A stretch of DNA of 63,665 bases, filler included, from Hausera hauseri (taxonomy: Eukaryota), in the NCBI GenBank assembly GCA_046269625.1. It is 10 parts of 10 records of this genome, joined end to end, with 100 filler letters (N's around TTAATTAATTAA, not from the genome) between each part and the next. Parts side by side here need not be neighbours in the genome. Positions count along the whole stretch, not along the records: positions 1 to 16,765 come from JBJURY010255513.1; 9 more parts are not named here. One strand, given 5' to 3'. Under the pieces are notes generated by a model. It was given only the letters and a program-made list of their open reading frames with translations. It was not told where the DNA came from and made no database searches. Positions 118 through 60,936 of this stretch are shown here, one piece after another; the stretch's first letter is position 1, and each line of letters starts with the position of its first letter. The translations under genes were made by a program, and so were the position numbers.

Positions 118-1641
118 TCAGTCATCGTCATCAACATCCACTGAAGTGGGGAGAGGGGCAATGAAAGCTGAAGGTGGCGGGTGTGCACTGAGAGGGAGGT
201 CGAACCAATTAACTGGGGGCGGAATGAAATTTGCAAGGTGTGGGTGAATCTGGGCAGCCGCTGGTGTCCAGATAGTGTCCAATTTGTTAAGACGAGATAA
301 GTGACGGAATAAGTCAAAAACATCATTGAGCATATTGGTGTAATTCAAAGTTCCAATAGAACGAATACGATTTATGCGGCATGCATCACGATAAGAAACA
401 AAACCCCATGGGCCTCTTTGTAATTCGATACTTCCCAGTATATCGTCATAACTTTGAGCAAAGCAGGCTAAGAACTGAGCAACGTCAAAAGTAACTAAGA
501 CACGTCCATAAGTGCATCGAGCCACATGCAACATGACTAGGTTGAAATCTGGAGCCGAGTCGAGCATTTGGAGGGAAATGCCATGAATGTGAGATTCGAC
601 ATTAGACAAACGCACTCGTGGGTTAATGAGTGTGGTATAACGCTGTATTAAGGAGTCGTTCTGAATTTCCCCCAGGCTTACTCCGATACATATTTTAATA
701 GCTCCAGAAAGAGCGGTTGTAAATCCCACGAGGAGGAGATCAGAATCTACTGGTTGTCTAGCTAACCTCATGAAAGAAGAAGAGTTCAATTCAGGAGGTG
801 GCAAGGGTAGTAAAGAACAATCCATCGTACGAGTTGTACCATTAGAGGACTGGGACCAATAATCGAGCCAAGGTGACGGAATAGTGTGTTCAATTTCAAT
901 CATAATAGTTGTGGGTACCGTGACAATTTGTATTTTCGGACCCATGTTATTCCATACCGATCGGGAAAAACGGATTGAGGCATACTGAGGAATAGGAATA
1001 TCAAATTCATCTGTTTGACGTGACCACTGAAACTTGAGTTGACCTTCAGCCACAGACAAAAGAGTATCATGAAGGGTATATTGTAAGTCCGGTTGTTCAA
1101 TCAAATCCTCAACAAAGGTTCGAAGTGGTAGTGTACCTTTGTGTCGAAAGCGGTTGATTATAATTGATCTATTTTGGAGGCTATTACCCTTTAACCAATT
1201 AGGTAATGAGAACGGTGTTTTGTAGCACACGGTAGGGTGGACTAGAGAATTGGCCTTAATGGATTTATATGCATTGTTAGAGCGGGCTATTTCTTGAATT
1301 TCGGATGGAGATTGCATATTAGCGATTTGTATCGGCAACCCGGGAAGACTGCGTAGGTGAAGACTCTGGGCTGTATTATCCACAAAACGTAAGGAGAATT
1401 CATCTGGCTGCGATGTTTCAATGTTAGATGATTGTGCTGGTCTGCCATCGGCGGGTATCTCGTCACCCAGGCCGTATAAGAAATTCACGGCATTGGGTGT
1501 TGCTGTATTGCCCGATGAGGGGATGACTGTTTTTCGCCCACGTAACCAAGTTAAATAAGTTGGCTCGGCCACTGAAGGTAAGGAAGAATAAGAAAAATTC
1601 GCCACAGCCATGCAGCTCGCAGCTGTAGCCAAAAGTAACCG
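118..1641 (-). CDS. ORF4, accessory protein with a degenerate DnaQ/DEDDh exonuclease-like domain; in frame with pol after one TGA
   Basis: 504+ codon ORF. The segment RYTTLINP...IHGISLQMLDSAPDF...GRVLV resembles the DnaQ-family F.TLINP...IHGIT.EML..AP.F...VLVAHN motif. Confidence 0.65.
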   Translation of the reverse strand, partial: RLLLATAASCMAVANFSYSSLPSVAEPTYLTWLRGRKTVIPSSGNTATPNAVNFLYGLGDEIPADGRPAQSSNIETSQPDEFSLRFVDNTAQSLHLRSLPGLPIQIANMQSPSEIQEIARSNNAYKSIKANSLVHPTVCYKTPFSLPNWLKGNSLQNRSIIINRFRHKGTLPLRTFVEDLIEQPDLQYTLHDTLLSVAEGQLKFQWSRQTDEFDIPIPQYASIRFSRSVWNNMGPKIQIVTVPTTIMIEIEHTIPSPWLDYWSQSSNGTTRTMDCSLLPLPPPELNSSSFMRLARQPVDSDLLLVGFTTALSGAIKICIGVSLGEIQNDSLIQRYTTLINPRVRLSNVESHIHGISLQMLDSAPDFNLVMLHVARCTYGRVLVTFDVAQFLACFAQSYDDILGSIELQRGPWGFVSYRDACRINRIRSIGTLNYTNMLNDVFDLFRHLSRLNKLDTIWTPAAAQIHPHLANFIPPPVNWFDLPLSAHPPPSAFIAPLPTSVDVDDDD

Positions 1642-4600
1642 TCATAATATTACCTCATAGTTTAGGTCATAAGTTTGACATCTGGGGTTTCGCATATGAG
1701 TTTTAGTATTCTTACTGTTGATTGTAAGATTTTCATACATACTTCCAATTTCTCTATCTGTATTTGGGGGGTGTTTTTGGAGCCAAAGAATAAGGACAGA
1801 AACTAAGACGACCGATCCTATAACGACTAGAAGAGCAATAATCAAGGAGTATACAACAAAACTGTCAACAGACATTTCCGTTACGGTTTCAATTGAAGGG
1901 GCCATACTTATAACATGGCGAAAACCATGAAGGTTCATTGAATCAGTCAATGTCTTGCACGGTAAGGGAGTCGTTCGTTGAGAAACGGAAGGATACTGTT
2001 TTTGTTCACTTTTGAATACAGGCGTTGCGCGAATTTGAAAATATCGTTGGGTAGTCGACAGGGCAGAGGTTATGATGTTATCACGTAATGACATTAGCAC
2101 AGGAAATTGCAGGATGGCGTTAAGTAACAAAAAATTGTTAAAACCAGGTACAGTAAAGCTTAGTTTCACTTTATCCTTACTGATATTTGATACCATAGTA
2201 CTATAATTGGTTTTAATAAGGATGTTATTGGAGGTGAGGTGCTTTACGTTAATATTAGCTGGAGTAAGGCATAATATTTTCAATGCTCTGTGATGTGACC
2301 CTATTACTACTGTGGTCAGATCCAACTTCTGTCTTATAGCAATCCAAGGGATTGTATAAATTTCCTTTAATTTATTGTCGAATGTTGTTGCTACTCCTTC
2401 CCACAAGTACTCTCCGGATATTTTTAACGGCTTGGCTGGAGCTTGGATCCATTGGAAAGTCAAATATCGATGTGCATAACTTACGTGGCAATTTAGTTGC
2501 AACCATACAGCTTCACTGTAATTAAATTCTTGGTGATCTATTCTAAGGGGTTCAAGGGCCTCCCCAAGCCTACTAATTGAGAGTGGGCAAATTTGTCCTA
2601 TTGAAACAGCCCGTAATTGTAGCCCCCTATGTTTTTCACACCAGAATAGTAAAACTGGGATTTCCCTGTGATATATAAATGTCGGTGCCTTCAGCAATTC
2701 GGAGTTCCATCTACTGATTTGTGTACTATTAACCCATTCTTCAATTACTTGCTGTAAGGCTTCTTCGTCCGAATGTACATAGTAGCAGTGGCCTCCTGGT
2801 GACTTAAACATACAATGGAATCGTTGGTAGCGGTGACGGCCTTGTACCAAAAAGATATTGACCTTAATGTTGTGAAGGAAGTCCGACACAAAGGTATATA
2901 AACGTAATTCATTCCTTTGCTTTGTCCATCCCCATTGAATTTTTATTCCGTGTGATAAAGATAATAAGCATAGCAATAAACAAAACATGTACAATATAGA
3001 AAACTTCGGCACGCCTAGATTTGTTGGAGCTAACTCGTTCCTGGTCTGGTTAATGCCAACATCCTGAGGTATTACCGTAACTAATTGTGTAGGGGCCTTT
3101 TTGCACCGATCTGCTGCTACAGTTATGATTTCGTCTCGCTTCCCGATTTTTTTTCGTATAAAAATGTTCGTTTCTGTAACATTTTCCACTTTATAGGGAC
3201 CTTTCCACGGGCGAGCTAATTTTGGTGACTTACCTTTTTTTACTGCAGGTTCCAAAAGCATCACGAAATCGCCTTGTTTGATTGAGTGAGGACGTGCCTT
3301 TTTATCGTAATTTCCCTTATATGTTTTCTGATAATCAAGTGTTAACGATTGTGCTAAGGCCCATGCTTTCGTCAATCGTTCCTTCAAATAGTTTACATAG
3401 TTCGGTTCATGTTTTGCCAGGGTCTCATCTGGAATTATTTCTAAATCCTTCGGCAGAAGTGGGTCACGCCCATACATAAGGAAGAATGGTGGTTGCTGTG
3501 TTGCCGAGTGTGGCGCAGTTCGCAAGGCGAACATACAAGCTGGGATGAACAAATCCCAGTCATCTTGTCTATCGTCCGTTACCGTAGCCAACATTGATAA
3601 TAATGTGCCATTTAATTTCTCGACCATACCATCACAGCAAGGGTGATAAGCAGCTGTTTTAAGCTTATATATAGAGAACAATCGGCAAACCTCTTGGAAC
3701 ATTTTATTTATAAATTCCGTTCCTTGATCTGTTAATATTTTCCTGGGAGCACCGTACCTGAACACTATTTCCTCGACAAATAATGCTGCAACAGTAAAAG
3801 CTGATTTATCAGCCATTGGAAATGCCTCTGGGAATCTAGTCAAGTAATCTACAAACACCAATATGTATTGGTTCCCGCTCTGCGTCTTCGGTAACGGTCC
3901 GATTATATCCATCGCTGAAAATTCCATGGGACTCGCTGGTGGTGGTATCGGATGCAACGGAGGTTTACATCGGTATCCCCTATTTCGTCTGGTCGCACAG
4001 ATCTTACAGCTTGCACACCATTGTTCGACATCCTTTTGAATTGTGCGCCAGTAATATTTTCGTTTAATTCTACCCAATGTCTTCTTATATGCAGGATGCC
4101 CTGCTAATAATCCGTCATGTTCTTGTTGCATAATGTCGTGTCGCCTAGATTCTGGTATCACTACCAACTGCCGATCATTGTACCAATAGCGTAATAATTC
4201 AGATGCAATAAGGTATTTTGCACCTTGACTTACCAAGTGTTGTATTAGTTCTTTATGAGAGGTATTAATTTTTCGTGTTCGCACAAATTCTCTGATTACT
4301 CTCAATTCCGCATCTTGCTCTTGTTGGTTAATCAGCATCTGAATTTCATCATCTGGGATATGTGCCGTAGTTATCTGGAAGGTCATTAATTGTGATATGT
4401 GTTTTGATTCACATCCTTCCTCCAAGCATTCTAGCTCTCGTTTAGTAGCGGGTCTACGTGACAACCCGTCCGCATTTTTATTATTTCTACCAGGCCGATA
4501 AAACACAGTTAAATTGTATGCTTGCAATTTTAGTTGCCACCGTTTTAGTCTTGAGTACGGATCTTTTACTGTTGAAAACTCTAACGGTGCATGATCTGTG

Positions 4601-19299: not shown

Positions 19300-22200
19300 A
19301 TTCTGATCATCTTGCGTACAATTGTAGTTTGCTGTTCTTTCTCACATTTTTTGTCTTTTTAAATACAATTGGGTTTGCTGTTCTTTTTGCTTCAATACTT
19401 CCGAAATTTTGTAATTATTTAACTCGGAGTGAGTGACATCTTTTTCAAGTTTTCTGATTGTTGAATTCAATTGCTCAATCTCAACGGTACTGCTTTCTTT
19501 AGAATAACGAACTTCATTTTTAAGTCTTCTTATTTTCAGCCTGGTAATTATTTTTATATTGTTCTTTCTCTTCTCTCTCTTTGCTAATTGCTAATTTTAA
19601 TTGAGCTTTCTCGTCGACAAACTGATTTTCTTACTATGTGAAACCTTTTTCAAACGATCTATTTCTATTTCCAAACGGGTATGAGAAGATTTATTGTGTT
19701 TACGAATTTCTCGGTTGTCCGTTCTTTAAACCTTAAATCCCGAAACACTGCTCTTAAGCTTGTTGTAGTTCAAGAATCTTAGCATTCAATGTTGTTTCGA
19801 TCTTTTGAATCTGTTCGTCGAATTTTTTTCAATTCGATGAATTTTATTATTAAGCTCGAAGATAACATCTTCGTAATGTGAAACCCGTGTATTGTGTTGT
19901 TTAAGTAATTTTTCGTATTTTTCCCGATTCTCATCGAATTCTTCTTTAGCAATTTTATAATCTTCGCAAAATCTTCATAATTTTCAATTCCCTTTCGAAG
20001 GTTAAGTTCTAGATTTTCTATTTTCTCACTGACGATAGATAAGGGTGTTTTAATGTTTGCTAATTCAACATCTTTCAGATTCTTTTCACACTCAATCTGA
20101 TAGATTCGGTTCTGAAGAATAAGAATATTGTCTTTGTATTCATTCCTAGATTGATCGTACGACAAAGATGAATTATCCAAATTCTTTTGAAGATCGGAAA
20201 TAATATCGGATTTTAATACGATATTTTTTTCATGATCCTTAATTTGTTTCCTTAAATCTGCAATTTCCTTTTGATGATTCTGTAATGCTACTTCAATCTG
20301 CGATATTCGATTGGTTTTACAACGGATTTCTTCATCCTTTCTCTCCATTGTCACACAATTGGTTTCCGACAAATTTGTTAATGATTCAACTTGTTTTTCA
20401 TAGCATTCAACGGTCTTTTGAAATTCTGAAATTTTATTCTCCAAGTTTTCATTAAGCTTCTTAGAGTTTTGCAATTCCGTCGATTTGATTCGAAGTAAGT
20501 CGAGCTCTTCGTTCAATATTTTCTCTTTCAATTGCAAAGTGTCTATATCATTATCTTTTTCTGAAATTAGTTTTTGATAATTTTCTTCCAACTTTGAAAC
20601 TTTATCTGTCGAATCCGAATATTTCAAAAAGCAAATATCGTATTTGCATTCCAAAATTCGTATTTTGTCTATTAGATCATCGTTCGCCTTTCTGATCAAA
20701 TCCAATTCATGAGTTTTTAACACAATCTCCTCAGTTTTCTTCGATTCTGCAATTTTATACGTTTCAAAATCTTTTCCCAATGAACTATTCCTTGAAATCA
20801 AATTACGAATTGTAGTAACAATGTCTAATGTAGTACTTTGAGTACGCGGATTATCTTTAATTTCAGAATCGGTCACTGTACCCAATACTTCGCAAACGCT
20901 ATCTAGTTTATTTTGTAAATTAAAAATGAAGCTTTCTTTCTCTTCCATTGATATTTCATTCATTTCCTCTAACTCTGAAATTTTGGCCACGCTGCAATTG
21001 TACTCCTCGAGGCAAGTATTGTATTTTTCTTCAACAAGTAAGATATTGTTTAACATACGTTCGTTATCTTCCAATAATTTTTTATTCGTTTCCTCTAACT
21101 CAGAAATTTTCGTCTTGCATCCATTGTACTCCTCAAGGCACGTATTGTATTTTTCTTCAACAATTAAGATATTATTTAAAACACTTTCATTATCTTCCAA
21201 TAATTTTTGATTCGTTTCCTCTAACTCGGAAATTTTTGTCATGCAACCATTGTTTAAAACGCCATTCATATCTCGTTTAATTGACTCGATCTCTATCTCC
21301 TTTGACAAAATAAGCTCTGATATTCTACAATTTTCAGCTTGAAGCCTATTGATGTCGTCCTCATAAGTATGGATATTCTTTAAAAGATTTTCAATTAAGT
21401 CTAAAACACTGATTGAGACATTTTCATAACTTCCAGCACAGTCTGATGTTAAATTTTCGGCTTCTTTATTAACTGAACCTACCAAACATCGAATCTTCTC
21501 AATGAAAGAAAGATTATCCTTCATAATCCATTCATTTTCTTGTAATTCCAAAGAAGCCTCTTCTAATTTGGTCAAACAATCTTGATATTCGTACACGATC
21601 CTTTCTAAATCTGTTTTCATTTCCAACATCTCATCCGAATGTTTACATTCTAAATTAATTTTACAATTTTTTAATTCACTTTCGAAATACTCTTTATATT
21701 CACAGATTCGAAGATTACAGTCATCGGTCAGTTTTTGAATAGCTGTTTCATATGATTTAACGGTGTTCTCTATTTCTACAGTTTTCTCCTGATTACTGAC
21801 TTTCAAACCCGTGACCCGAATCTGAATATCTTTGTGATTAGCAACCAAATTGTTATTAATGCTGATTAAATTGAAAATGTTTTCGGTAATTTGAGTTATT
21901 TCTTCAGCAATTCCAGAAAACATTGAATTTTGTGCTTTCAACTGAATCATTTCAATTTTGCAGAGTGATTTTTTAACTTTTAATAAATCGAAGCATTTAC
22001 CTGATTTCTAACCAAATTTAATTTTGCATTTTTTTTCTTCATACTCGGTTATTGAACCTTACCAAGAATCAAAATTTTCTTTTATCACGTGTATAAAATC
22101 GTTCAAGTCAATACTCACTTCCTTGTCCATTTACTGGCATACAAATGACAAGTTAGTTTGACAGCTATCTAGATCATTCTTCCACGATTTAATTTCTGAT

Positions 22201-25976: not shown

Positions 25977-26961
25977 ATGGCCAACCGAACTGTTCGAGAT
26001 GCTCATACAATTCATGGAAAAAATCCCCAAAATTTAATTGAAAAGGTTATTAGAACTCGGATATATGATTCTAGATATTGGAAAGAAGAATGTTTAGCAC
26101 TTACATGTAAGTTGTAAGTTTTTTGTTATTTTTTATTTAAATTTTGCTTTAGCTGAACTCTTAGTTGATAAAGCTTGTGAATTAAAATATATTGGCGGTG
26201 TTTTTGGTGGAACCAATACTCCAACTCCATTCTTGTGTTTATTGCAAAAGCTACTTCAGATCCAACCAGATAAAGATATTGCAATCGAATTTATCAAACG
26301 GAATGAGTTTAAATATTGTCGAGCATTAGGAGTCATGTATTTGCGTATCACCGGAAATGCTGTAGTAATTTACAAATATTTGGAAACGTTATATAATGAC
26401 TATTCCAAGTTGAAGAGGCAAGATCAAGACGAAAAGTTCACGATTACCCACATGGATGAATTTATCGACGAATTGTTGAGAGAAGATCGAGTCTGCAGTA
26501 TTGTTTTGCCGAGATTACCAAAACGAGATGTTCTCGAAGGGTCTAATGAACTCGAGCCAAGAGTTTCAATACTCGACGAAGATTTGCAAGATCTAATGTT
26601 ACAAGTCGTTGAAGAAGAAGAAGAAAAAGAGGAAATGAGAAAACGATCAGACAAAATTACGGCTAAGGAAGAAGTCAGTCGACGAAAACGAAGCCGTTCA
26701 AGAAGTCGGGATAGACGAAAATCAAGAAGTCGTTCACGAAGCCGAGGGAGATCTCGTTCACGTGGTAGATCACGATAGAGATCGAAAGACCGTGCTCGTA
26801 GACGTTCGCCGAGACGTGATCATAAAGATCGTAAACATGATAAACGGGAGCGTTCTCGCGATAGATCAAGAGAACGAAGATACGACAGAGAATCGTCACA
26901 AGATCGCAATAAAAGAAAAAGTGATCGAAAAGACTATGATAAACATAAGGACAGATATTAA
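25977..26961 (+). CDS. PRP38: Pre-mRNA splicing factor PRP38 (PRPF38A-like); exons 25977-26106 and 26153-26778, or to 26961 if the TAG is bypassed
   Basis: MANRTVRDAHTIHGKNPQNLIEKVIRTRIYDSRYWKEEC; PTPFLCLLQKLLQIQP; HMDEFIDELL; RS tail; 46-nt GT-AG intron. Confidence 0.93.
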
Positions 26962-34589: not shown

Positions 34590-37500
34590 CCCTCTCATGG
34601 GAATTATTGGAGAAACCAGTTCTGGGTTGGCATATATAAAGGACAATTTTGTCCTCATGATTTCGGTATCTAATTTACAGTCATTCATTATCATTTTGTG
34701 ATATAATTCCATTATTCCAACTTGTCCTTTGTAGTAGAATTAATTGTCTTTGTTTTTCAAATAATCCTCAATCCGGACATCCTGCGTTTCTAGCTGGTAA
34801 GTCTTCACATTTATTTCCGTTTCTGCGACGAAAAATGCCTCATAATTAGTGGCGAACATCACTACATCGCAACGAAAGATCATTTCTTTTTTAATAAATT
34901 TCAGTCCATGCTGATCCAAGATTAATATAGTAGATATAAGGTGTTCCGATACGTCCTCGCGTGTGCTTGAGTTGGTATCGGATTTATCTACATATCGCTT
35001 TCCGGTAGTTTCATTAAACCTTAATTCCTTGATTTTGATAAAATTACAAAAAAACTTCTTCCGGAAGGCGGTTCCCAGATTATAACCGAACTTCTAAAAG
35101 CACAGGTTCCGTCTTCTAAATAATATTTTTGATTTTCAGTGTAACTTAGTGACGCTATGGAACATTACTCTTGTGATCGCATCTCCAATTCATAGAAATC
35201 CACCACTACCACATTTGCTTGTAATCCTTTTCCGGTATCATATTCTGCGCCGTAACAATGTACACTGTACATATCTAACCTTCCGGCTACTACCTTGTAC
35301 GCCCTGATTATCTTTCCCGGTTGTATTTCTAATTCCATACTATCCCATTGTACTCTTCCGGTCTCCTTAGCCTGTTTGCAGTGCTGGCGTTCTAAGTTCA
35401 TAGGGATAATCGGAGTTGTCGGTTTAATTATTGAGGAATGCCCGCGTACTAATATACAATGGAAAATACTATGAGATCGTCTCAACATACATTCCATTCC
35501 ATCTAACTATATCAGTTCTTGTTGTTGGTACAGGAAATAATTTTTTTCTATTGTTTCCAACTTGTGCGGTCTAGCATTTTCGCACACGTCTAGATCCATT
35601 GGGGAATATCTCTGTTCTAGTTTAAACTTATCGCAGTCGTAGACGGTAACAGCGCTTATATATTTTATTAGCATCATCAAAGTGAGTAGGCTGATTAACC
35701 AATTTGATTCATTTTTCCGATAACCAACATCCTCTGTTGTTAAAATACGTAACATATCATCGAGTTTATTGCTGATCCGTCTGTCGTCTTCCTTGTCAAA
35801 CAGTTTTGACCAATTTACTTCGCAGGGCAATATTTCTGCTGCTTTTCGTGCTAATCTTATAACTCTATTGATTTCATTCTCTAGATTAGGGTTTATTTTG
35901 ACAGCTAAGTATAGTAATACTTTTCTCAATTCCTAGTTGGTGTTTTCTACCATGACCTTTTCGATTACCGATTCATCGGCTAAGTTACTTTTCGATAACT
36001 TAAAACGTGAACTTCGCATCATTCTGGCTTCATCGAATATTATCTTTTCTTTATCATATAATACATCACCTCGAAGGTTCGAATAATTTACAATTCGTAT
36101 TAAATTCTTTATTAACTCATTTAATTCCTCATTGTTTGTACTGAGAGTCGGAATCGACAACGGCCTCAGTTCTCTAATCAATTCTCCATTATAGGCCACC
36201 TCTTCTCGCGTTTTCTTGGGCCTACCAATTGGGCGTTTCGGCCTTGGGCCCTTAGCGGTTAGGTCACTCAGTAGTACTAAATTTATATCGTATTGTTCCT
36301 TGTTTTCACCAGTTTGTAAATATTCGAAATACATTGCAGCATCTCGGACTCCCATAATCTGTCCCACGCATTGCTATGACCTTGCATTACGTGTGGCTTC
36401 CTCTTTTGTCTGCTTATTAGCTATGGTTGCTACTATTCGACTTGTTTCGTCGGGAATAATCCCGACATCTATTAATTGTTCTAGGTCGTCGAGTATTCTA
36501 CCTCTAAAGTAAAATCTATAATTTAACTCGTTTCTTCCGCCGTTATTTAATAACCAGTCTCTTACGTCCCTCAGATAGGAATATGTAGTTAATTCACATT
36601 CTTTGTCATCCATCCACTCGTACGATATCATTACTTTCATTGTTACCTGAGGTTTAGCCCTCAAGATTTTAGCGTATTCTCTTATCAAAAGTTTCTGCAC
36701 CATGCTATAAATCGTATTCTTACTAGATAATTTAGTTAATGTCGGAATAAGTTGTCTTAACTTATTTTCGGTAATGTTTCCGTTAATTAGTTCGATTAAA
36801 TCCCTTTCATTTAGCGCTGAATCCAGGAACATCTCCACGTTGAATCTCCCACTCTGCGGACGTGTCTCTACTTCATTTAGTTGTACCGGAGTCGTGGGTT
36901 TTTCGGCAATCATCGCATCTAAATAAGCATCCCATTCCGGTTTGTTTTCAACGTCTAGAACTCTATAGTCCGCTAAGGCTATATTTGTTCTATGTACATT
37001 TCCTCGGATTTCTTCCTATCTTGGTTGTATTTCCTTCATCTGTGTAGTTCGGAATCCTACTGCGTTTCCACAAGCATACTGAATCATTTTCAGTAATTTG
37101 CCTAATTCATTAGAATTGATAAGTCCTTTTTGGTGATAATCTGTTAGTTCAACAATTACATCTCTTTGCCATATTTGTACGAATTCTCGCTTGTTTTTGA
37201 TTTCTGATTCGGTAAAAGCATATTTGTTCCGGTAGATTCCGAGCTCTTTTACTAATTTATCTAACCTTGTTGCTTATTGTTGGGTTTTAATACAGGTTTC
37301 TTCAACCTGTCTTATTTTAGGCATCAATTGTTTCATCTTATCATCATTAATCTTTGCCATTTCTACTAGTAGGAAGGCAAATTCATACATCTCATTTATA
37401 ATTTTTGAGTCAGGATCTATTGCGTCAAGCAATTTCTTTACAAACTTAGATTCCTGAAAACTAAGATGTTGGTCATCTTTTATCTTTTTTAACTCGGAAT

Positions 37501-38621
37501 GAAAATTCTGATCTGATCCGGCCTTTTATTCTTGTGGTTTGTGCAAGAATTTTATTGCGTCCGTTAAAGTGACTCGATATTCCGGACAAATGTCTCGGGT
37601 TTCAATATCTTGCACAGAGATCTTATCGATAGGTCTATCTGCTAAATGCTGAATTCCTTCTAGTCTGACATTTCTTAATGTTGGGTAAAAATTACAAGTC
37701 ATATTTCGCTTTTCTGTAAAATTCCTCTCTTCGACCATTTTATAGGTCTCTTCCAGTATCGTCGCTTCTTGTTTCTTATTCATAAAATTTAGCCGTCGTA
37801 ATGCTTTAAATTGAATTCGGACATTTATTTCTGCCTTTATTGTGTCCAAATTACGTGCGCTTTCTTCAAACTGTTTCTTTATAGAAGGCTTGCTCTCTGA
37901 AAATTTTTTCTTACGGTTTTCCACTAATTTACTTAGTCGCGTTACTAATTTGGACCATTGCGACAATTGATTGGCGATTATTGGCTTTGCCATTATAGCC
38001 TTATCTAGCATCTTATATGCATATTTTAACTCATCATCTGGACCTTTTACGAAGTTTATAATCAGACTGACATAACTAAATTCGTCCTTATATTCGTCGA
38101 ATTCTATGATGCAAGCTTTTATTATATATTTGGTTTCTTCATTATTCATGAACATGATTCAATTTTGTAAACTACTAATCTGCTATCTTTTTTCATTCTC
38201 CATTTTAATGCGACTCTAAGTCCGCGCATCGTCTAGGTTCGGCAAAGGCAATTTTTATCATTTCCATTAATGGAGCAATATATACTGAGTCTATACCCAA
38301 TATTTCTATATCGACATCACTTCGACTACTAAAAGGTTTTTCTCTAAGTCGATTAATTATTGCAAAACGAATTTCATCCATCATACGTTCTAAATTTCGG
38401 ACAACTCTCTTTAGTTTTGGATTTGCTTCTATGGTAGACAATAGCTTCTGAACCTTAGCGACTTTTACGTCGACATTATCTTCATTTTTGCTTCATCCTT
38501 CCGAAAATTCGACTCCACTTTTAATCCATGATTCTAACTCATGTTTCCATTTTAACAATGTTTCAGGTGATACCTCTTCAGGTTGTCCTAAGTCGATTGC
38601 TTCATCAAGCTTTCCTTCACT
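34590..38621 (-). pseudogene. Decayed relative of the gag-env element: helical region, UBL, AT-hook, leader, chuvirus/gB-like glycoprotein
   Basis: YRFYFRGRILDDLEQLIDVGI (UBL); RPIGRPKK; LRKVLLYLAVKI and WSKLFD (leader); signal followed by VTVYDCDK...YSPMDLDVC; MIMNDC...ANPELVSPIIP. Multiple in-frame stops. Confidence 0.8.
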
Positions 38622-38721
38622 NNNNNNNNNNNNNNNNNNNNNNNNNNNNNNNNNNNNNNNNNNNNTTAATTAATTAANNNNNNNNNNNNNNNNNNNNNNN
38701 NNNNNNNNNNNNNNNNNNNNN

Positions 38722-41700
38722 GCAGTGGTTGAAGCCTCTGTAGTAAGGATGAGTTCCGCATCAGGCTTGGGGAATGCAAGAATGTCGACAGTCTTAATTC
38801 CTTCGCATAGCTTATCAGACTTATCAAACAGGTCAGGAGTCCACTGGATTGGATGAGGTTTTTTGCCGCCGCTTAAGTGAGAAAATGGTGCGGTAAGTCC
38901 AGAGCAGTACGGCACATACTTGTGAACGAAGTGAAAGTTCCCAAAAAGCTCCTCATTTCTGTTGTTGTTCGAGGTAGTTGTATACGTTTGAGAGCTTCAA
39001 CACGTTCTGGCTGAGGATAATGACATTTGCTGAAATGATGTGTCCGAGAAAGTTAATACGCTTTTGGACGAAGTGACATTTCGTAAAATTAATTTGTAAA
39101 TTATGGTGGTTACGTCGTTGAAAAATAGAACGAAGATGTTCCTCATGCTGTTTGGTTGAAGACAAAGCAATCAAAATATCGTCGATATATAGGTGCGCGA
39201 AAGTAAAATCCGAGAGGATGGAATCGATGTGATGTTGGAAAGTCTGCGTAGCGTTGATTAAACCAAAAGGCATATAAATGTATTCGTACATGCCGAAAGG
39301 TGTCGTAACGGCAGTTTTCTCGATGTCCTGGGGTGCTACAGGAATTTGATGATATGCCGTGGCTAAGTCTATGGTTGAATATACTGTAGTGGAATTGAGC
39401 CGTTGCAGGATATCCTTAATTAATGGTAAAGGATATGCATCCATAAGAGTTAAAGTGTTTAGTTGACGGTAATCGCAGCATGATCGGAAGGATCCATCTT
39501 TTTTGGACAAAGTGTAAAGGCGAAGATAACGGCGATTTAGATCTTCGTACAATGCCGGAGCGTTTAAGGTCTAGAAATTCGGTTTCCACAGCTTGCCTAC
39601 GACGAAGTGACAATGGACGTACCTTTTGACAAATAGGTCTTTGGTGTTGCATTATGATGTGATGAGAAGTGCTGTTTGTAGGTTTGAAGATTCGGTCCTT
39701 CTGAACTAAGAGGAGGCATAAAGTGTGTATGTATTGCCGTAGACTTGCAGGTAATTGCGAGAGATTTGGTGATGGTGACGGTATTGAGTCAATATGTGCA
39801 GTGACGTGTGATGTTTGCGAGTTATTGAAATCAATGGGAATTTGATGTGGTATAGTAGTATTAAAAATAGTGTTTGAAGAGGTAATTTTGTCTACTGAAT
39901 GTGGTGAACCAACGCAATCGTAGTTGTCAAAACCAAATCTCGACTGAATATCGATTTTATCATTAAAAAATTTACGAAATAAAAAATGCATGTTGAAGAA
40001 GTTTGGATTACTTACAAGATTTTTGAGTATAGGCTTCCGCAGGAAGATTGTTTGCGCCTTGGCGGATATACTACTTATTCGCTCGGTAAGATATCCATTA
40101 GTGTTACGTTTCAGATATTGTTCTTTGTAATCAACTAAAAGATTATAGTGCAACAAGAAATCCGAACCTAGGATTGCTGTGCGGACGTTAGCGACGGTAA
40201 ACGTCCAATGAAAAGTGGAATGAAATTTTGGTAAGATGTACGACAATTTAGATGTACCTAAAATGTCAAGCGGTTGTCCTGAAGCCGTAAATAAAGATTT
40301 AGCTTTGAATGGTGAATTTTGTACAGAGAAAGTGAGTGGTATCAAAGAAACCGCAGCGCTTGTGTCGATAAGGAAGTCTATGGATTGCGTTGTTGGTGTG
40401 GTTATCGAAGCGTTTAGTGTAAAGACTGCAAAAGAAGTGTGTCGGCAGGTAGTATTAGAGAAGTTGCCTTTGCCAGATTCTGTCGTGAGTACTGGCGGCG
40501 AAATTAGTTTTTTTGGATTAGAGAGATCGACTGACTATTACTAGGGACAATAGAACGTCTGTCGGTAGAATGGTTAGGGTTGTTATTATAGTTGCAGCCT
40601 GAAAGACATTTCTGAGCATGGAATTTAAATTTCGCATGGTAAATGGAAACGATCTTGTCTGAATGTAAATTTGGAGAGTAATACCTACACCATAAACAGC
40701 ATTTATTAGCTTTCTTATAAAATTTGCTATGATAATAGCACACAAAAGATCGTGCAGGCAATGGTGACCTGTTTCTGAAAACAGAACGAATATAATTATA
40801 AATAGGAACACTTCGTTGTGGTAATGAAAGATCGTACAACCTATTATTAATGTTATTTATTGTGTGTTGTAATGCTAAGTTTTCAGCGCGTAATTGGCTC
40901 AACTGTTGCTATATTGTTGTATGGAGTTGACTGTCGCTTGTTGTGACCGCTGCTCATACAATTGGTTGAGAATTCAATTGTAGCACTTTAGGTGCTTTAT
41001 CAGCCAATTCCGCCAATTTATTCAACACCCTAGATTCCTAGACAACGGTAAGAAGTGCCCTAATTTGTACAGGAAACGCGTTTAAGAAATATCTCCGCAG
41101 AAGGTCTGAATTACGCTGCCTAGTTACACCCAGCATTTGTAGGTGAGTCAACGACGTACGCAAGAACTCAGAAGGTTTTGTGTTCCAATGGCGTTGCCGT
41201 TGAAAAACCGATGAATTATGGAGTCCATAGATGGTTTGGTAAGCTTTACAACGGAATTGTATAGATGGGTGTATGAATCAGGTTGTTAAAGTATGTCTAG
41301 CAAGTCATGAATGCACGTGTCTACTGTAGTCGGTAAAAGACAAAGTAGGTTATGGGCTTTGGCTAGAGAATAAGTAATACCATTAGACTGCATCCAAAAT
41401 TTATGAAAGCTAAGCCAGGTTTTGCTGGTGGGACGGAAGGTGTATATGTGGTGAAAGTAAATGGTGTGGTGACGGTCGAATTGTGGTGAAAAACAAAATG
41501 TGATGGTTTAGAGGTAGTTTTGTCAGTGGCATCAATGGTGGGTGAAGAGTCCATGCCACGACGTATGCGCAAATGTACATGGATAACAAGATGTGGGGTT
41601 GAAGGAGAGAAAAATTGTGGATATTGGCATTAACGAGTGGTAGATTATTAAGTTAAATAAGTCTGAAACAGCAGTAAAACGTTGTACATATTTGTGTAAG

Positions 41701-42635
41701 TACAGTGAGTCTATATGGTATGTTATATTGTGCGTCAGTATTTGAGAATTATTTAATAAAAAGTAAAACAAAAGGGTGTCACAGGCCCTATTGGGTGGTG
41801 TGGCGATTGAATGGATTATGGTTTGGGACCCACTGACGAAGGACGGGCGGCCGGGAAGTCGGTCACACTGCCATGCACCAGAAAATATGGGTTGACCGAA
41901 GCTTCACTGGGGGTCCAGTCAGAAAAGTATGTTAATTCGATTGTTCAATCGTGTTTCCATGGCGATCGATACTCAACTGGATATCATCAGTAGGGACGGT
42001 ATTACCGCTGTCCAAAGTAATAGTACGTAAATGGAGGTTAGACATAACAAGGGGTATATCAATATATACTCCGTAAATCATGGTTTCAAAGGAATTCAGA
42101 GGACGTCTATGGAAAATCAGTGTCAAACATAAAACTCTCAGATGAAGATTTAAGTTAAGGGCTGATGAAAATGTTAGTGGATCATGTGAACAATTATAGG
42201 GAATCTCTAAGTAAAGGGACATCAAGTTACAACTACAACTGGAGGCTAAACCTAAAAGGGGTGATGTTGTTATTCCAACGGCGGACATATGAAAAGCAAA
42301 AACATAAGAAAAACAGGGAAGAGAAATCGTTAATAAGTAAATGAAGAAGATTGTTGCCAGATGAATAGTACGCAATAACAAATCTCACCTCATCATGCGC
42401 TGGTTTCTCCGCGGTTGGCAGTATCGTTTTGCATGGTTGGCACTGCAGATCGACTTTCTCACGTCGTGTCGTCCTACGAGCGATCTGCATACTCAAGGAC
42501 TCTGAACAAACCCACCAGTTCTTTCTTGTCTGCTTTGTGCCTTTTGACAAACGTCTGTAATCGATCATCTTACTCGCTCCACTCTGCAGTCTAATACTGA
42601 TAATCTCACTGGTTTACAGCAGTTTTGTTGATGTT
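38722..42635 (-). mobile_element. Decayed Ty3/Gypsy LTR retrotransposon (gag, protease, RT fragments; probable LTR ~41930-42635)
   Basis: FLIDTSA protease; DYRQLN; YPLP; MPFGL; YIDD; gag-like KPSEFLR. Many frameshifts. LTR boundaries uncertain. Confidence 0.8.
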
Positions 42636-42639
42636 GCAG

Positions 42640-43290
42640 CAGCTGCATGCACGGCGGAAAAGAAGTTTTACTCAATGTTGGTATATTATTAGCGGTAATA
42701 TTTTTATTTTTTTCCGTCTGGGAATAATCTTTACCAATGTACTTCTTGTCAGTAGTGGACAAAAAATTCAAACGACTGTCTTCTTCTGCTAGTGACCAAT
42801 TCAGCCGCAAAATGGAGACATTGTGAGACATGTGTTTGCGGAATTCCGTTGCTACAAAACGGACGAGTTCTTTTTCGGTAATATATGCAAATCCTTTATT
42901 CGAATAGACTTTGCGTGATTTAATCGAATCGGTAACCGCTTGAAATTTAACTATGTGTAACACATTGGTTATATTTGAATGTTTAGCTTTGACAACATGA
43001 TCGTTGACAATTTCCATGTCAATTTTGTTATCTCTGAGGAACTATTTAAAGACATCTTTTTTGTGTGTAGAAAAGCAATATTTAAACAAATCAACTTTTT
43101 TGTTAATGAACCAACGACTTAATTCGTCGGTACGAGAATAGGATAGTAACAAAATAATATGGGATTAATGTCATTATGAACATTATGGTGTCCGTTTCAT
43201 TTGCTCCATAAAAACATGGCTGGGAAAATGAATTGAAATTCTTAAATTCATCGTCCCGAACATCGATATGTATAGTTTGTTCATTGAGAA
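42640..43290 (-). pseudogene. PRIM2: DNA primase large subunit fragment, frameshifted and truncated
   Basis: DLFKYCF...FLRDN; RKVYSNKGFAYI; EEDSRL; IGKDYS; LSKTSFPPCMQLL, after which similarity stops. Confidence 0.75.
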
Positions 43291-60012: not shown

Positions 60013-60936
60013 TTGCTGTTTTGTGAATATCTGACTAATATAAAGTCAGAAATAAAAATGCCTCAGATATTCAGGTGTGGGTTCTACGAAACACTTAATC
60101 AAACAACGGCGATGACGAGTACATTTCGACCTCTTTTTATTTACCTTCATTCAAATGAATCAAAAGATTCTGAGGTATTCTTTACCAATGTTTTCAGTGA
60201 AATAATTTGTGACTACTTAACAAATGAGAATTGGCCTTTGTTGCCTCTCGATGTTAGCGATGTAAGCCACCTTAATGAATTGAAAACGATTTTAAGAAGG
60301 TTGGTAGTAAATACAAATAATGTTTATCAAATCAAACCACCAATGATAATGGTCCTTTCTAAACAAGGATTGGATACTCATATAATTTCAAAGCTCAGTG
60401 ATCCAAATTTGATGAATTTAGTTGATGGAGTATTCCAAGCAGGAAAACTAGCAAAAAGGTATATCATACTGCATGAACAGATCAGAATAAGTAAAAAAAC
60501 ACAAATTGAAATTGAAAATAAGGCAAAAGAACGAAAATTGGAAAAATTCAAAAAAGAAGAAGCTTTGAAGAAAAAGACAAAAGAAGGAAAAGATCGAATT
60601 GAAAAGGAAGAAAAAGAAAAGTCATTAAAACAATCATTGAAAGAAACGAAAATGGAATTTGCATTGTCACAAGTAAAAGAAATTCCGTCGTGTCAATCAA
60701 ATTATACATTGGCATTTAAATTTCCAGATGGTCAGACAATTGTTTGGCAATTTTTAGAAACGGCAAAAATCATCGATGTGATTTACTTTGTGGAATCAAA
60801 AGGATTTCTATCGGATGAATCAAAGATATTGTTTTCATATTCCATGCAAGATTTATATGAATCGGAAAACATTACAAATGATTTAAAAAGCACCGGAATC
60901 TCTAAAAGAGAAAGAGTTACTGTGCAAATAAAATAA
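60013..60936 (+). CDS. UAS-coiled coil-UBX protein (FAF1/FAF2-like); 5' exons unresolved
   Basis: RPLFIYLHS...FFTNVF (UAS), E/K coiled coil, LAFKFPDG...F...VIYFVESKGF...LKSTGI (UBX). Confidence 0.75.
   Translation: MLFCEYLTNIKSEIKMPQIFRCGFYETLNQTTAMTSTFRPLFIYLHSNESKDSEVFFTNVFSEIICDYLTNENWPLLPLDVSDVSHLNELKTILRRLVVNTNNVYQIKPPMIMVLSKQGLDTHIISKLSDPNLMNLVDGVFQAGKLAKRYIILHEQIRISKKTQIEIENKAKERKLEKFKKEEALKKKTKEGKDRIEKEEKEKSLKQSLKETKMEFALSQVKEIPSCQSNYTLAFKFPDGQTIVWQFLETAKIIDVIYFVESKGFLSDESKILFSYSMQDLYESENITNDLKSTGISKRERVTVQIK

Follow-up and report, generated by a model that had tools for sequence, protein, structure and literature searches.

A DEDDh exonuclease-like domain, probably inactive, encoded in frame behind pol in a gag-env-pol retroelement of Hausera hauseri

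The question raised by this locus is what a retroelement would do with an exonuclease-like domain that appears to have lost its catalytic residues. The window, that is, the whole 63,665-nucleotide (nt) stretch of Hausera hauseri DNA (assembly GCA_046269625.1) analyzed here, begins with 12 kb taken up by a minus-strand retroelement in the order gag, env, pol and a fourth open reading frame (ORF), ORF4. ORF4 shares the frame of pol, and a single UGA-CGG-UUA separates both. Sequence comparison confirmed that ORF4 carries a DEDDh (DnaQ-like) fold. We propose, tentatively and somewhat short of even confidence, that ORF4 may be a two-domain accessory protein and RNA-binding pseudo-nuclease made by readthrough from pol.

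The DEDDh domain of ORF4

The probability of a 507-codon frame by chance is about 1e-11; the first ATG of ORF4 lies at 1611 (M11) and the next at 1317 (M109). NCBIfam model NF004719 matched the domain at E = 1.7e-7 and TIGR00573 at E = 3.6e-5, both scoring far under their whole-protein cut-offs, and 18 of the 19 NCBIfam families listed for ORF4 were of the DEDDh/DnaQ type. Pfam RNase_T gave E = 0.027, under its cut-off, and the search of PDB returned the PolC exonuclease (2p1j, E = 0.011). A search of 1.84 billion representatives yielded a single match, a DEDDh protein at E = 5e-4, and a word-based search with full-length ORF4 yielded zero matches at E up to 0.01 (7994 candidates). Against a profile from 120 bacterial DEDDh proteins, a set that was seeded by the best match of ORF4 and is thus biased upward, ORF4 scored 30.4 bits, compared with 4.9 or less for 2000 shuffles. 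The strong match is confined to the N-terminal half of the domain (aa 306-404), and the C-terminal half was assigned because the alignment of the accessory family described below supports it. The single-sequence AlphaFold model of ORF4 had a predicted local distance difference test (pLDDT) score of 30.5. A model guided by a multiple sequence alignment reached a pLDDT of 78.1 and led Foldseek to DEDDh structures, but as 54 rows of bacterial DEDDh sequence had gone into it, this result is circular.

The initial annotation had described a catalytically dead DEDDh/DnaQ exonuclease fold at 295-741, and this was borne out: the motifs lie on the minus strand and the domain occupies nearly the same interval (Table 1). 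Profile searches, in which the lack of any DEDD or RNase H-like fold was to count against the claim, found DEDDh families, as the NF004719 score illustrates. Two alternative explanations were rejected. One was chance resemblance of motifs; the other was simple bacterial contamination, for the GC content at third codon positions of ORF4 (0.37-0.39) is near that of gag and pol (0.35-0.36) and one contig joins ORF4 to pol.

With residues numbered from position 1641, the ExoI Asp is replaced by G306 (726-724), the ExoI Glu by T308 (720-718) and the general-base His by T435 (339-337). The two-metal site of DEDD enzymes cannot form without both ExoI acids. The ExoIII Asp is retained as D440 (324-322), so that the His-x4-Asp of active DEDDh nucleases is broken at its first residue only. 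The ExoII position depends on the register: it is F390 in a gap-free register against the related elements, and it is filled by D386 if a 4-residue gap is allowed in the alignment with bacterial sequences. The catalytic substitutions read by eye in the initial annotation thus hold for ExoI and the general base, and for ExoII in one register of the two. In these alignments at least three of the five catalytic residues are lost, and probably four.

An accessory family in related elements

Relatives were collected by a metagenome scan with pol, from which the best 80 of 394 were taken. In the reverse transcriptase (RT) tree of 80 sequences, the window element grouped with loci L001-L005 and L007 and with proteins P0032, P0039, P0042, P0049, and P0054 (support 0.995), the window diverging first and L007 second. 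Accessory ORFs past the pol stop, one or two per locus and 443-607 aa long, were present in all six clade loci with DNA there, a count that leaves out L006 and L008, which end inside pol; L081 also ends too early. Each of these ORFs pairs an N-domain with a DEDDh domain of the His-type PF00929, and the Pfam RNase_T cut-off was passed by three of the five intact relatives. The active site is kept in five of the eight DEDDh domains, as DEDD+H in L001:8592-9920, L002:9043-10371, L004, and L005 and as DEED+H in L003, and is lost in the other three (L001:6861-8246, L002:7268-8740, and L007). In L001 (6861-9920) and L002 (7268-10371), a dead copy is followed by an intact copy in tandem, possibly forming a pair of enzyme and pseudo-enzyme. 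The two dead copies share 44% identity over 483 aa and their frames are open, suggesting that dead versions are kept by selection.

ORF4 was recognized by profiles built from the eight relatives only, at 25.5 bits for the N-domain (shuffle maximum 8.0 in 1000) and 19.0 bits for the nuclease domain (shuffle maximum 3.1). When the family was searched against 8259 frames, drawn from the window and 104 loci, the only hits at E<0.3 beyond the relatives were ORF4 itself and L104, a DnaQ-like gene of a phage, and zero further retroelement loci outside the clade appeared among the 104 loci at this threshold. Scans of viral contigs with ORF4, env, and pol found zero relatives, and the family scan there found only L104. 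The genome-contig scan gave 23 loci, 0 of them with an accessory ORF; L081 (44% pol identity) stops short of that region and was left out of the tree. The N-domain had zero matches in Atlas, Pfam, or PDB. Nor did its profile resemble that of the AlkB/2-oxoglutarate-Fe(II) oxygenases: against 27 bacterial AlkB-family proteins, the hhalign probability was 0.08%, level with 40 column shuffles, a result that bears on profiles and leaves room for a likeness in fold.

The related records also hold other additions. L002:10906-11517 is weakly ubiquitin-like (Pfam E = 0.041) and cut by the contig end, and L005:11375-12040 codes for 222 aa of unassigned family. A second aspartyl-protease-like domain lies in the Pol polyprotein of P0042, P0051, and P0054, and P0051 also has ankyrin repeats. 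Some eukaryotic Ty3/gypsy elements sit within bacterial or archaeal metagenome-assembled genome records (P0049, named as a Flavobacteriaceae protein, and L081-L103), which is likely bin contamination.

As to the origin of the nuclease, the intact L002 protein matched SDN1 (8.5e-14), ISG20L2 (2.2e-13), ISG20 (2.6e-11), and PolC (3.5e-5) in PDB, and the family profile ranked the ISG20-family structures likewise, the closest solved structures being those of ISG20, ISG20L2, REX4, and plant SDN1 (E 3e-23 to 2e-14). Since the ISG20/SDN1-type scores are far better than that of PolC, the family most likely descended from a eukaryotic REX4/ISG20-type gene, as far as sequence comparison indicates. ORF4 alone matched PolC and had no match to ISG20 at E up to 10. 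A domain tree was computed from L104, the 9 domains of the elements, and 12 bacterial proteins taken from the set of 120. In it, ORF4 was placed on a long branch between both groups (2.5 substitutions per site) and outside the bacterial clade with support 93; the tree held zero eukaryotic REX4/ISG20 sequences and cannot name the donor. The between-groups position fits the basal placement of the element in the RT tree.

It could be argued that ORF4 acquired its nuclease domain in a swap, from a DnaQ/PolC gene of bacterial or phage origin and independently of the ISG20-like domain of the relatives. Besides the PolC match, ORF4 is collinear with DnaQ where the relatives carry a 3-residue gap, scores 32.6 bits with the bacterial profile versus 19.0 bits with that of the relatives, and joins the domain tree nearer the bacterial clade. 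However, the bacterial set was chosen by likeness to ORF4, the N-domain, gene position, and junction are shared with L007, and the C-terminal motifs of ORF4 track the relatives, with the basal domain placement agreeing with the RT tree. We consider such a swap rather unlikely, and DnaQ capture as the source of the ORF4 copy appears doubtful from these comparisons. The capture of a DnaQ factor put forward in the initial annotation therefore stands as far as a disabled DEDDh fold in a retroelement accessory ORF is concerned, but this ORF belongs to a two-domain, lineage-wide family whose intact members are closer to ISG20/REX4/SDN1. The assignment to a Pol III epsilon-like protein did not hold, in view of the TIGR00573 score of 23.3 bits against a cut-off of 71.5 and the position outside the bacterial clade.

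Near-identical pieces of ORF4 were found in four runs from four studies, the best matching of which may be the source of the window itself; no indel or stop-making difference in ORF4 is listed for the contigs of these four runs, and contig depth does not give copy number. In run X1, four diverged contigs with about 80-86% identity overlap the nuclease domain. The 21 ORF4 differences listed for X1, which are those away from contig ends out of 62, include 11 at the third codon position (p 0.056) and 2 at the second (p 0.013). ORF4 might be a decaying passenger in which the enzyme was lost neutrally, as its long branch and the merely modest synonymous excess would allow. Yet all 507 codons are open, with no stops or indels in these contigs, and the dead paralogues are conserved between L001 and L002, so that neutral decay seems very improbable to us.

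The junction between pol and ORF4

The in-frame UGA junction between pol and ORF4 was missed in the initial annotation. What is new here is that ORF4 lies in frame behind UGA-CGG-UUA and a 3' stem, and that L007 repeats UGA-CGG-UUA exactly with a 3' stem of its own. The pol stop of L007 has the identical nine bases with the accessory ORF in frame, for which the chance is about 1e-4. The sequence TGACGGTTA occurs in 2 of the 104 loci; the second occurrence, L003:57-65, is away from an in-frame stop, so only the L007 position counts. In type II readthrough, as defined by Firth et al. (2011, PMC3159437), UGA-CGG or UGA-CUA is followed at a distance of 7-12 nt by a stem. The 3' stem of the window, over 50 nt, had a z of -1.98 and was equaled by 8 of 200 shuffles, while that of L007, over 93 nt, had a z of -3.04 in a sequence otherwise unrelated to that of the window. 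All three listed variants in ORF4 codons 4-13 are synonymous, two of them converting predicted G-U to Watson-Crick pairs; covariation in the stem amounts to these two one-sided changes. A stretch that spans the junction (1559-1665) is conserved in a diverged X1 contig whose flanks cannot be aligned on either side. From these sequence features, stop-codon readthrough from pol would yield ORF4, a prediction in which we place moderate confidence.

Several observations speak against readthrough or against the cytosolic placement that it would give. Over 126 nt, the window hairpin had a z of -1.35 and ranked 6 of 107 windows, which is not outstanding. In L007, the UGA is followed by a hydrophobic segment (hydropathy 2.5) that could move the domain across the membrane, away from the cytosol. 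Also, an acceptor-like CAG at 1625-1623 precedes the ATG at 1611 and a pyrimidine-rich acceptor-like site is found at 1574, so a spliced route is possible, and the family ORFs of L001-L005 are separate, behind spacers of 110-354 nt, most of the eight spacers ending AG-ATG-like. ORF4 could thus be translated as a protein of its own, with ATG 1611 or 1317 as its start, from an mRNA that is spliced or subgenomic; the in-frame position of UGA-CGG-UUA would then be a leftover or a splice signal. A TGAC about 19 nt before the CAG lies at a branch-point-like distance, and the first ATG is preceded by a mere 10 codons, which would be open by chance with a probability of 0.61. On the other hand, L007 shares the nine bases but has neither a pyrimidine tract nor an acceptor before its first ATG, and it has a strong stem there; in addition, the changes seen in codons 4 and 7, ahead of the first ATG, leave the amino acid unaltered. 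We consider a separate ORF4 protein possible rather than probable.

Possible functions, element setting and known systems

Pol extends about 460 residues past the integrase, and a hydropathy scan of this extension revealed a signal-like segment, an ectodomain, a transmembrane helix, and a short tail of 45 aa with three tyrosines. The extension (3018-1645) had zero Pfam matches, and a similar layout was found in P0032, P0039, and P0049. A second type I membrane protein ends Pol across the lineage (the window, P0032, P0039, P0049, L007, and others), and its ectodomains vary widely from element to element. Most of the tails end in a hydrophobic Val/Leu motif that is suggestive of PDZ-binding termini. 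Under readthrough, some ribosomes would pass the UGA and add ORF4 to the cytosolic tail of this membrane protein, by which ORF4 would be tethered at the site of particle assembly. At that site it would keep RNA 3' ends bound and untrimmed, most simply those of the element's own RNA, shielding or escorting it, and the intact relatives would be genuine 3'-5' exoribonucleases of the ISG20/REX4/SDN type. Precedents are Maelstrom and EXD1, dead DEDD folds that bind RNA (PMC5408684), and PML PXL, a dead DEDD fold with RNA binding (PMC13659232).

Some of our results do not favor this account. The ORF4 domain is charge-neutral, with 13 Lys and Arg versus 14 Asp and Glu, while the relatives have 21-34 Lys and Arg, and this neutrality counts against strong RNA binding. 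ORF4 is distant from every relative, the best BLASTP match being 28% over 67 aa. The changed codons of the X1 contigs, which are of low depth, comprise 7 synonymous and 9 non-synonymous ones, a modest signal of selection, and one X1 contig (depth 3.4) has a His at residue 434, adjoining the general-base position. The dead domain might instead have given up contact with nucleic acid and serve as a protein scaffold, such as one that partners or regulates an enzyme of the host or of the element, consistent with the neutral charge, with a C-terminal half shorter than that of the relatives, and with the tandem dead and intact pairs of L001 and L002. However, the window holds zero intact copies for this element and dead DEDD folds usually retain RNA binding (PMC5408684; PMC13659232), and we regard a scaffold role as unlikely.

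Another explanation for the family is suppression of silencing, in which the intact members would destroy host small RNAs as SDN1 does and the dead ORF4-type decoys would bind small-RNA 3' ends or silencing factors. In PDB, the intact L002 protein is matched best by Small RNA degrading nuclease 1 (E = 8.5e-14), and rapid divergence, duplication, and repeated inactivation suit a host conflict. The Atlas feature match to the arenavirus nucleoprotein C-domain (0.91) is a lead only. But ISG20L2 equals SDN1 with that protein (2.2e-13) and beats it with the family profile. Parasitic flatworms are without a Piwi pathway (PMC8191739), and if the host is such a flatworm, PIWI-interacting RNAs (piRNAs) would be excluded as a target and small interfering RNAs would still be possible. 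Furthermore, the rotifer DEDDy-type ORF3 discussed below showed no clear link to copy number (Rodriguez et al., PMC5408684). Silencing suppression is in our view a somewhat improbable role. A broader and still less probable scenario is a viral-style cassette across the lineage: the Pol-fused membrane protein would be combined with a captured ISG20/SDN-like exoribonuclease that was repeatedly duplicated and disabled into RNA-binding decoys, the decoy of the two deepest branches would be a membrane-tethered extension made by UGA readthrough of the alphavirus type, and enzyme and decoy would together oppose small-RNA silencing.

The element itself has a Ty3/gypsy pol and a gB-type env between gag and pol, features that it shares with the GAG-ENV-POL errantiviruses (Table 1). 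A gB env ahead of pol was also found in L003, L005, L007, and four clade proteins. The long terminal repeat (LTR) on the 5' side presumably ends just upstream of the primer-site-like sequence at 12121-12111, and the window, which ends 117 nt past ORF4, contained no other copy of an LTR. The gag/env (9530-9485) and env/pol (6909-6879) overlaps are in the -1 frame at A-rich runs and are candidates for programmed frameshifts or assembly slips, while L003, L005, L007, P0032, and P0042 have a single continuous polyprotein instead of overlapping frames. The C-terminal tail of ORF4 is probably disordered.

Table 1. Positions of ORF4, its domains, the junction and the other parts of the element in the window.
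Feature	Position	Strand	Basis
ORF4, 507 codons, in frame directly behind the pol stop	1641-121, stop 120-118	minus	open frame
N-terminal domain of ORF4, aa 122-252	1278-886	minus	relatives-only profile
DEDDh pseudo-exonuclease domain (predicted), aa 296-452	756-286	minus	profile and structure-database matches, family alignment
Pro-rich acidic C-terminal tail of ORF4	285-121	minus	sequence
pol stop UGA, then CGG UUA, type II readthrough context	1644-1636	minus	sequence; PMC3159437
Predicted hairpin, starting about 12 nt past the UGA, overlapping the possible acceptor CAG 1625-1623	1629-1601	minus	folding prediction
Junction island, 9 differences in 107 nt in a diverged contig, flanks unalignable on both sides	1559-1665		run X1, record 4
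pol frame, coding for protease, RT, RNase H and integrase and ending in the membrane-protein extension	6909-1642	minus	Pfam
Pol C-terminal extension	3018-1645	minus	hydropathy scan
Signal-like segment of the Pol extension	3018-2962	minus	hydropathy scan
Transmembrane helix of the Pol extension	1845-1789	minus	hydropathy scan
env of gB/class III type, located between gag and pol	9530-6879	minus	PF24664, E = 4.6e-68
gag with CCHC zinc knuckles	11983-9485	minus	Pfam
Primer-binding-site-like sequence, starting TGG, upstream of gag	12121-12111	minus	sequence

Elsewhere in the window, a second fragmented element (35165-40345, minus strand) spans an N run and includes fragments of RT (39552-38953) and of a gB-type env (35497-35165); it had zero matches to the accessory family. 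Host-like gene pieces at 26233-26778, 42565-43017, and 60013-60936 correspond to PRP38, the DNA primase large subunit, and UBX/FAF1, respectively. A 723-aa ORF (19779-21950, minus strand) consists of 126-nt (42-aa) tandem repeats that are coiled-coil-like, with no confident family. ORF calls and the repeat family D1 at the nine N runs (16766-59652) were discarded as artefacts.

Complex retroviruses carry accessory genes that counter host defences, and invertebrate Ty3/gypsy elements are usually drawn with gag, pol, and env only. The arenavirus nucleoprotein exonuclease has a role in immune evasion. Its C-terminal DEDDh domain is likewise virus-borne and has the Atlas feature score given above, but it is an active enzyme and part of a nucleocapsid protein, unlike ORF4, and no alignment-based link between the two was found. 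ISG20, REX4, and SDN1 are host enzymes with intact sites, whereas the site of ORF4 is lost and ORF4 alone does not match them at E up to 10. Exuperantia is a DEDD pseudo-nuclease that binds nucleic acid. Maelstrom, EXD1, and PML PXL share with ORF4 an exonuclease fold minus catalytic residues, which in their case serves nucleic-acid binding (PMC5408684; PMC13659232); these and Exuperantia are host proteins, and the database comparisons found no sequence link between them and ORF4.

Among retroelements, the closest parallel is in bdelloid rotifers, where the Juno and Vesta LTR retrotransposons and the Terminons carry a DEDDy-type ORF3 (Rodriguez et al., 2017, PMC5408684; PMC6431247). Juno and Vesta resemble the window element in being Ty3/gypsy with an extra ORF past pol and a DEDD 3'-5' exonuclease fold of predicted function only. 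Their ORF3 is an RNase D-like DEDDy protein that retains its invariant residues, and the elements lack env. In contrast, the elements described here bear env, and their family joins an ISG20/REX4-type DEDDh domain to an N-domain, occurs both intact and dead, and includes an in-frame junction of the readthrough type. Errantiviruses with the gag-env-pol order and a gB/class III env, as in the window, are known from nematodes, bryozoans, and flatworms (Chary and Hayashi, PMC13524379). The main text of that article has 0 words beginning with "nuclease" or "exonuclease", although its supplements may list related elements, and the post-integrase membrane protein and the fourth ORF of the window do not appear in the covered parts. 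In those of PMC8278194, DEDD refers solely to RNase H. In the literature covered, which lies outside the subscription journals and Sacco et al. (2022), we found no DEDDh/ISG20-like ORF in gypsy elements that bear env, whether its site was intact or lost, and no readthrough at this junction. The type II readthrough sites of alphaviruses, tobraviruses, and furoviruses have UGA-CGG and a stem after 7-12 nt, as at the ORF4 junction (PMC3159437), but the site here is in a Ty3/gypsy element, lies downstream of pol, and is a prediction.

The intact and dead DEDDh versions of this family form natural matched pairs with which to ask what use the domain is to a retroelement, a question that the 2017 work on the DEDDy ORFs of rotifers had posed without an answer. 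The junction is a candidate retroelement example of type II readthrough, and the family a candidate silencing suppressor in hosts that possibly are without piRNAs.

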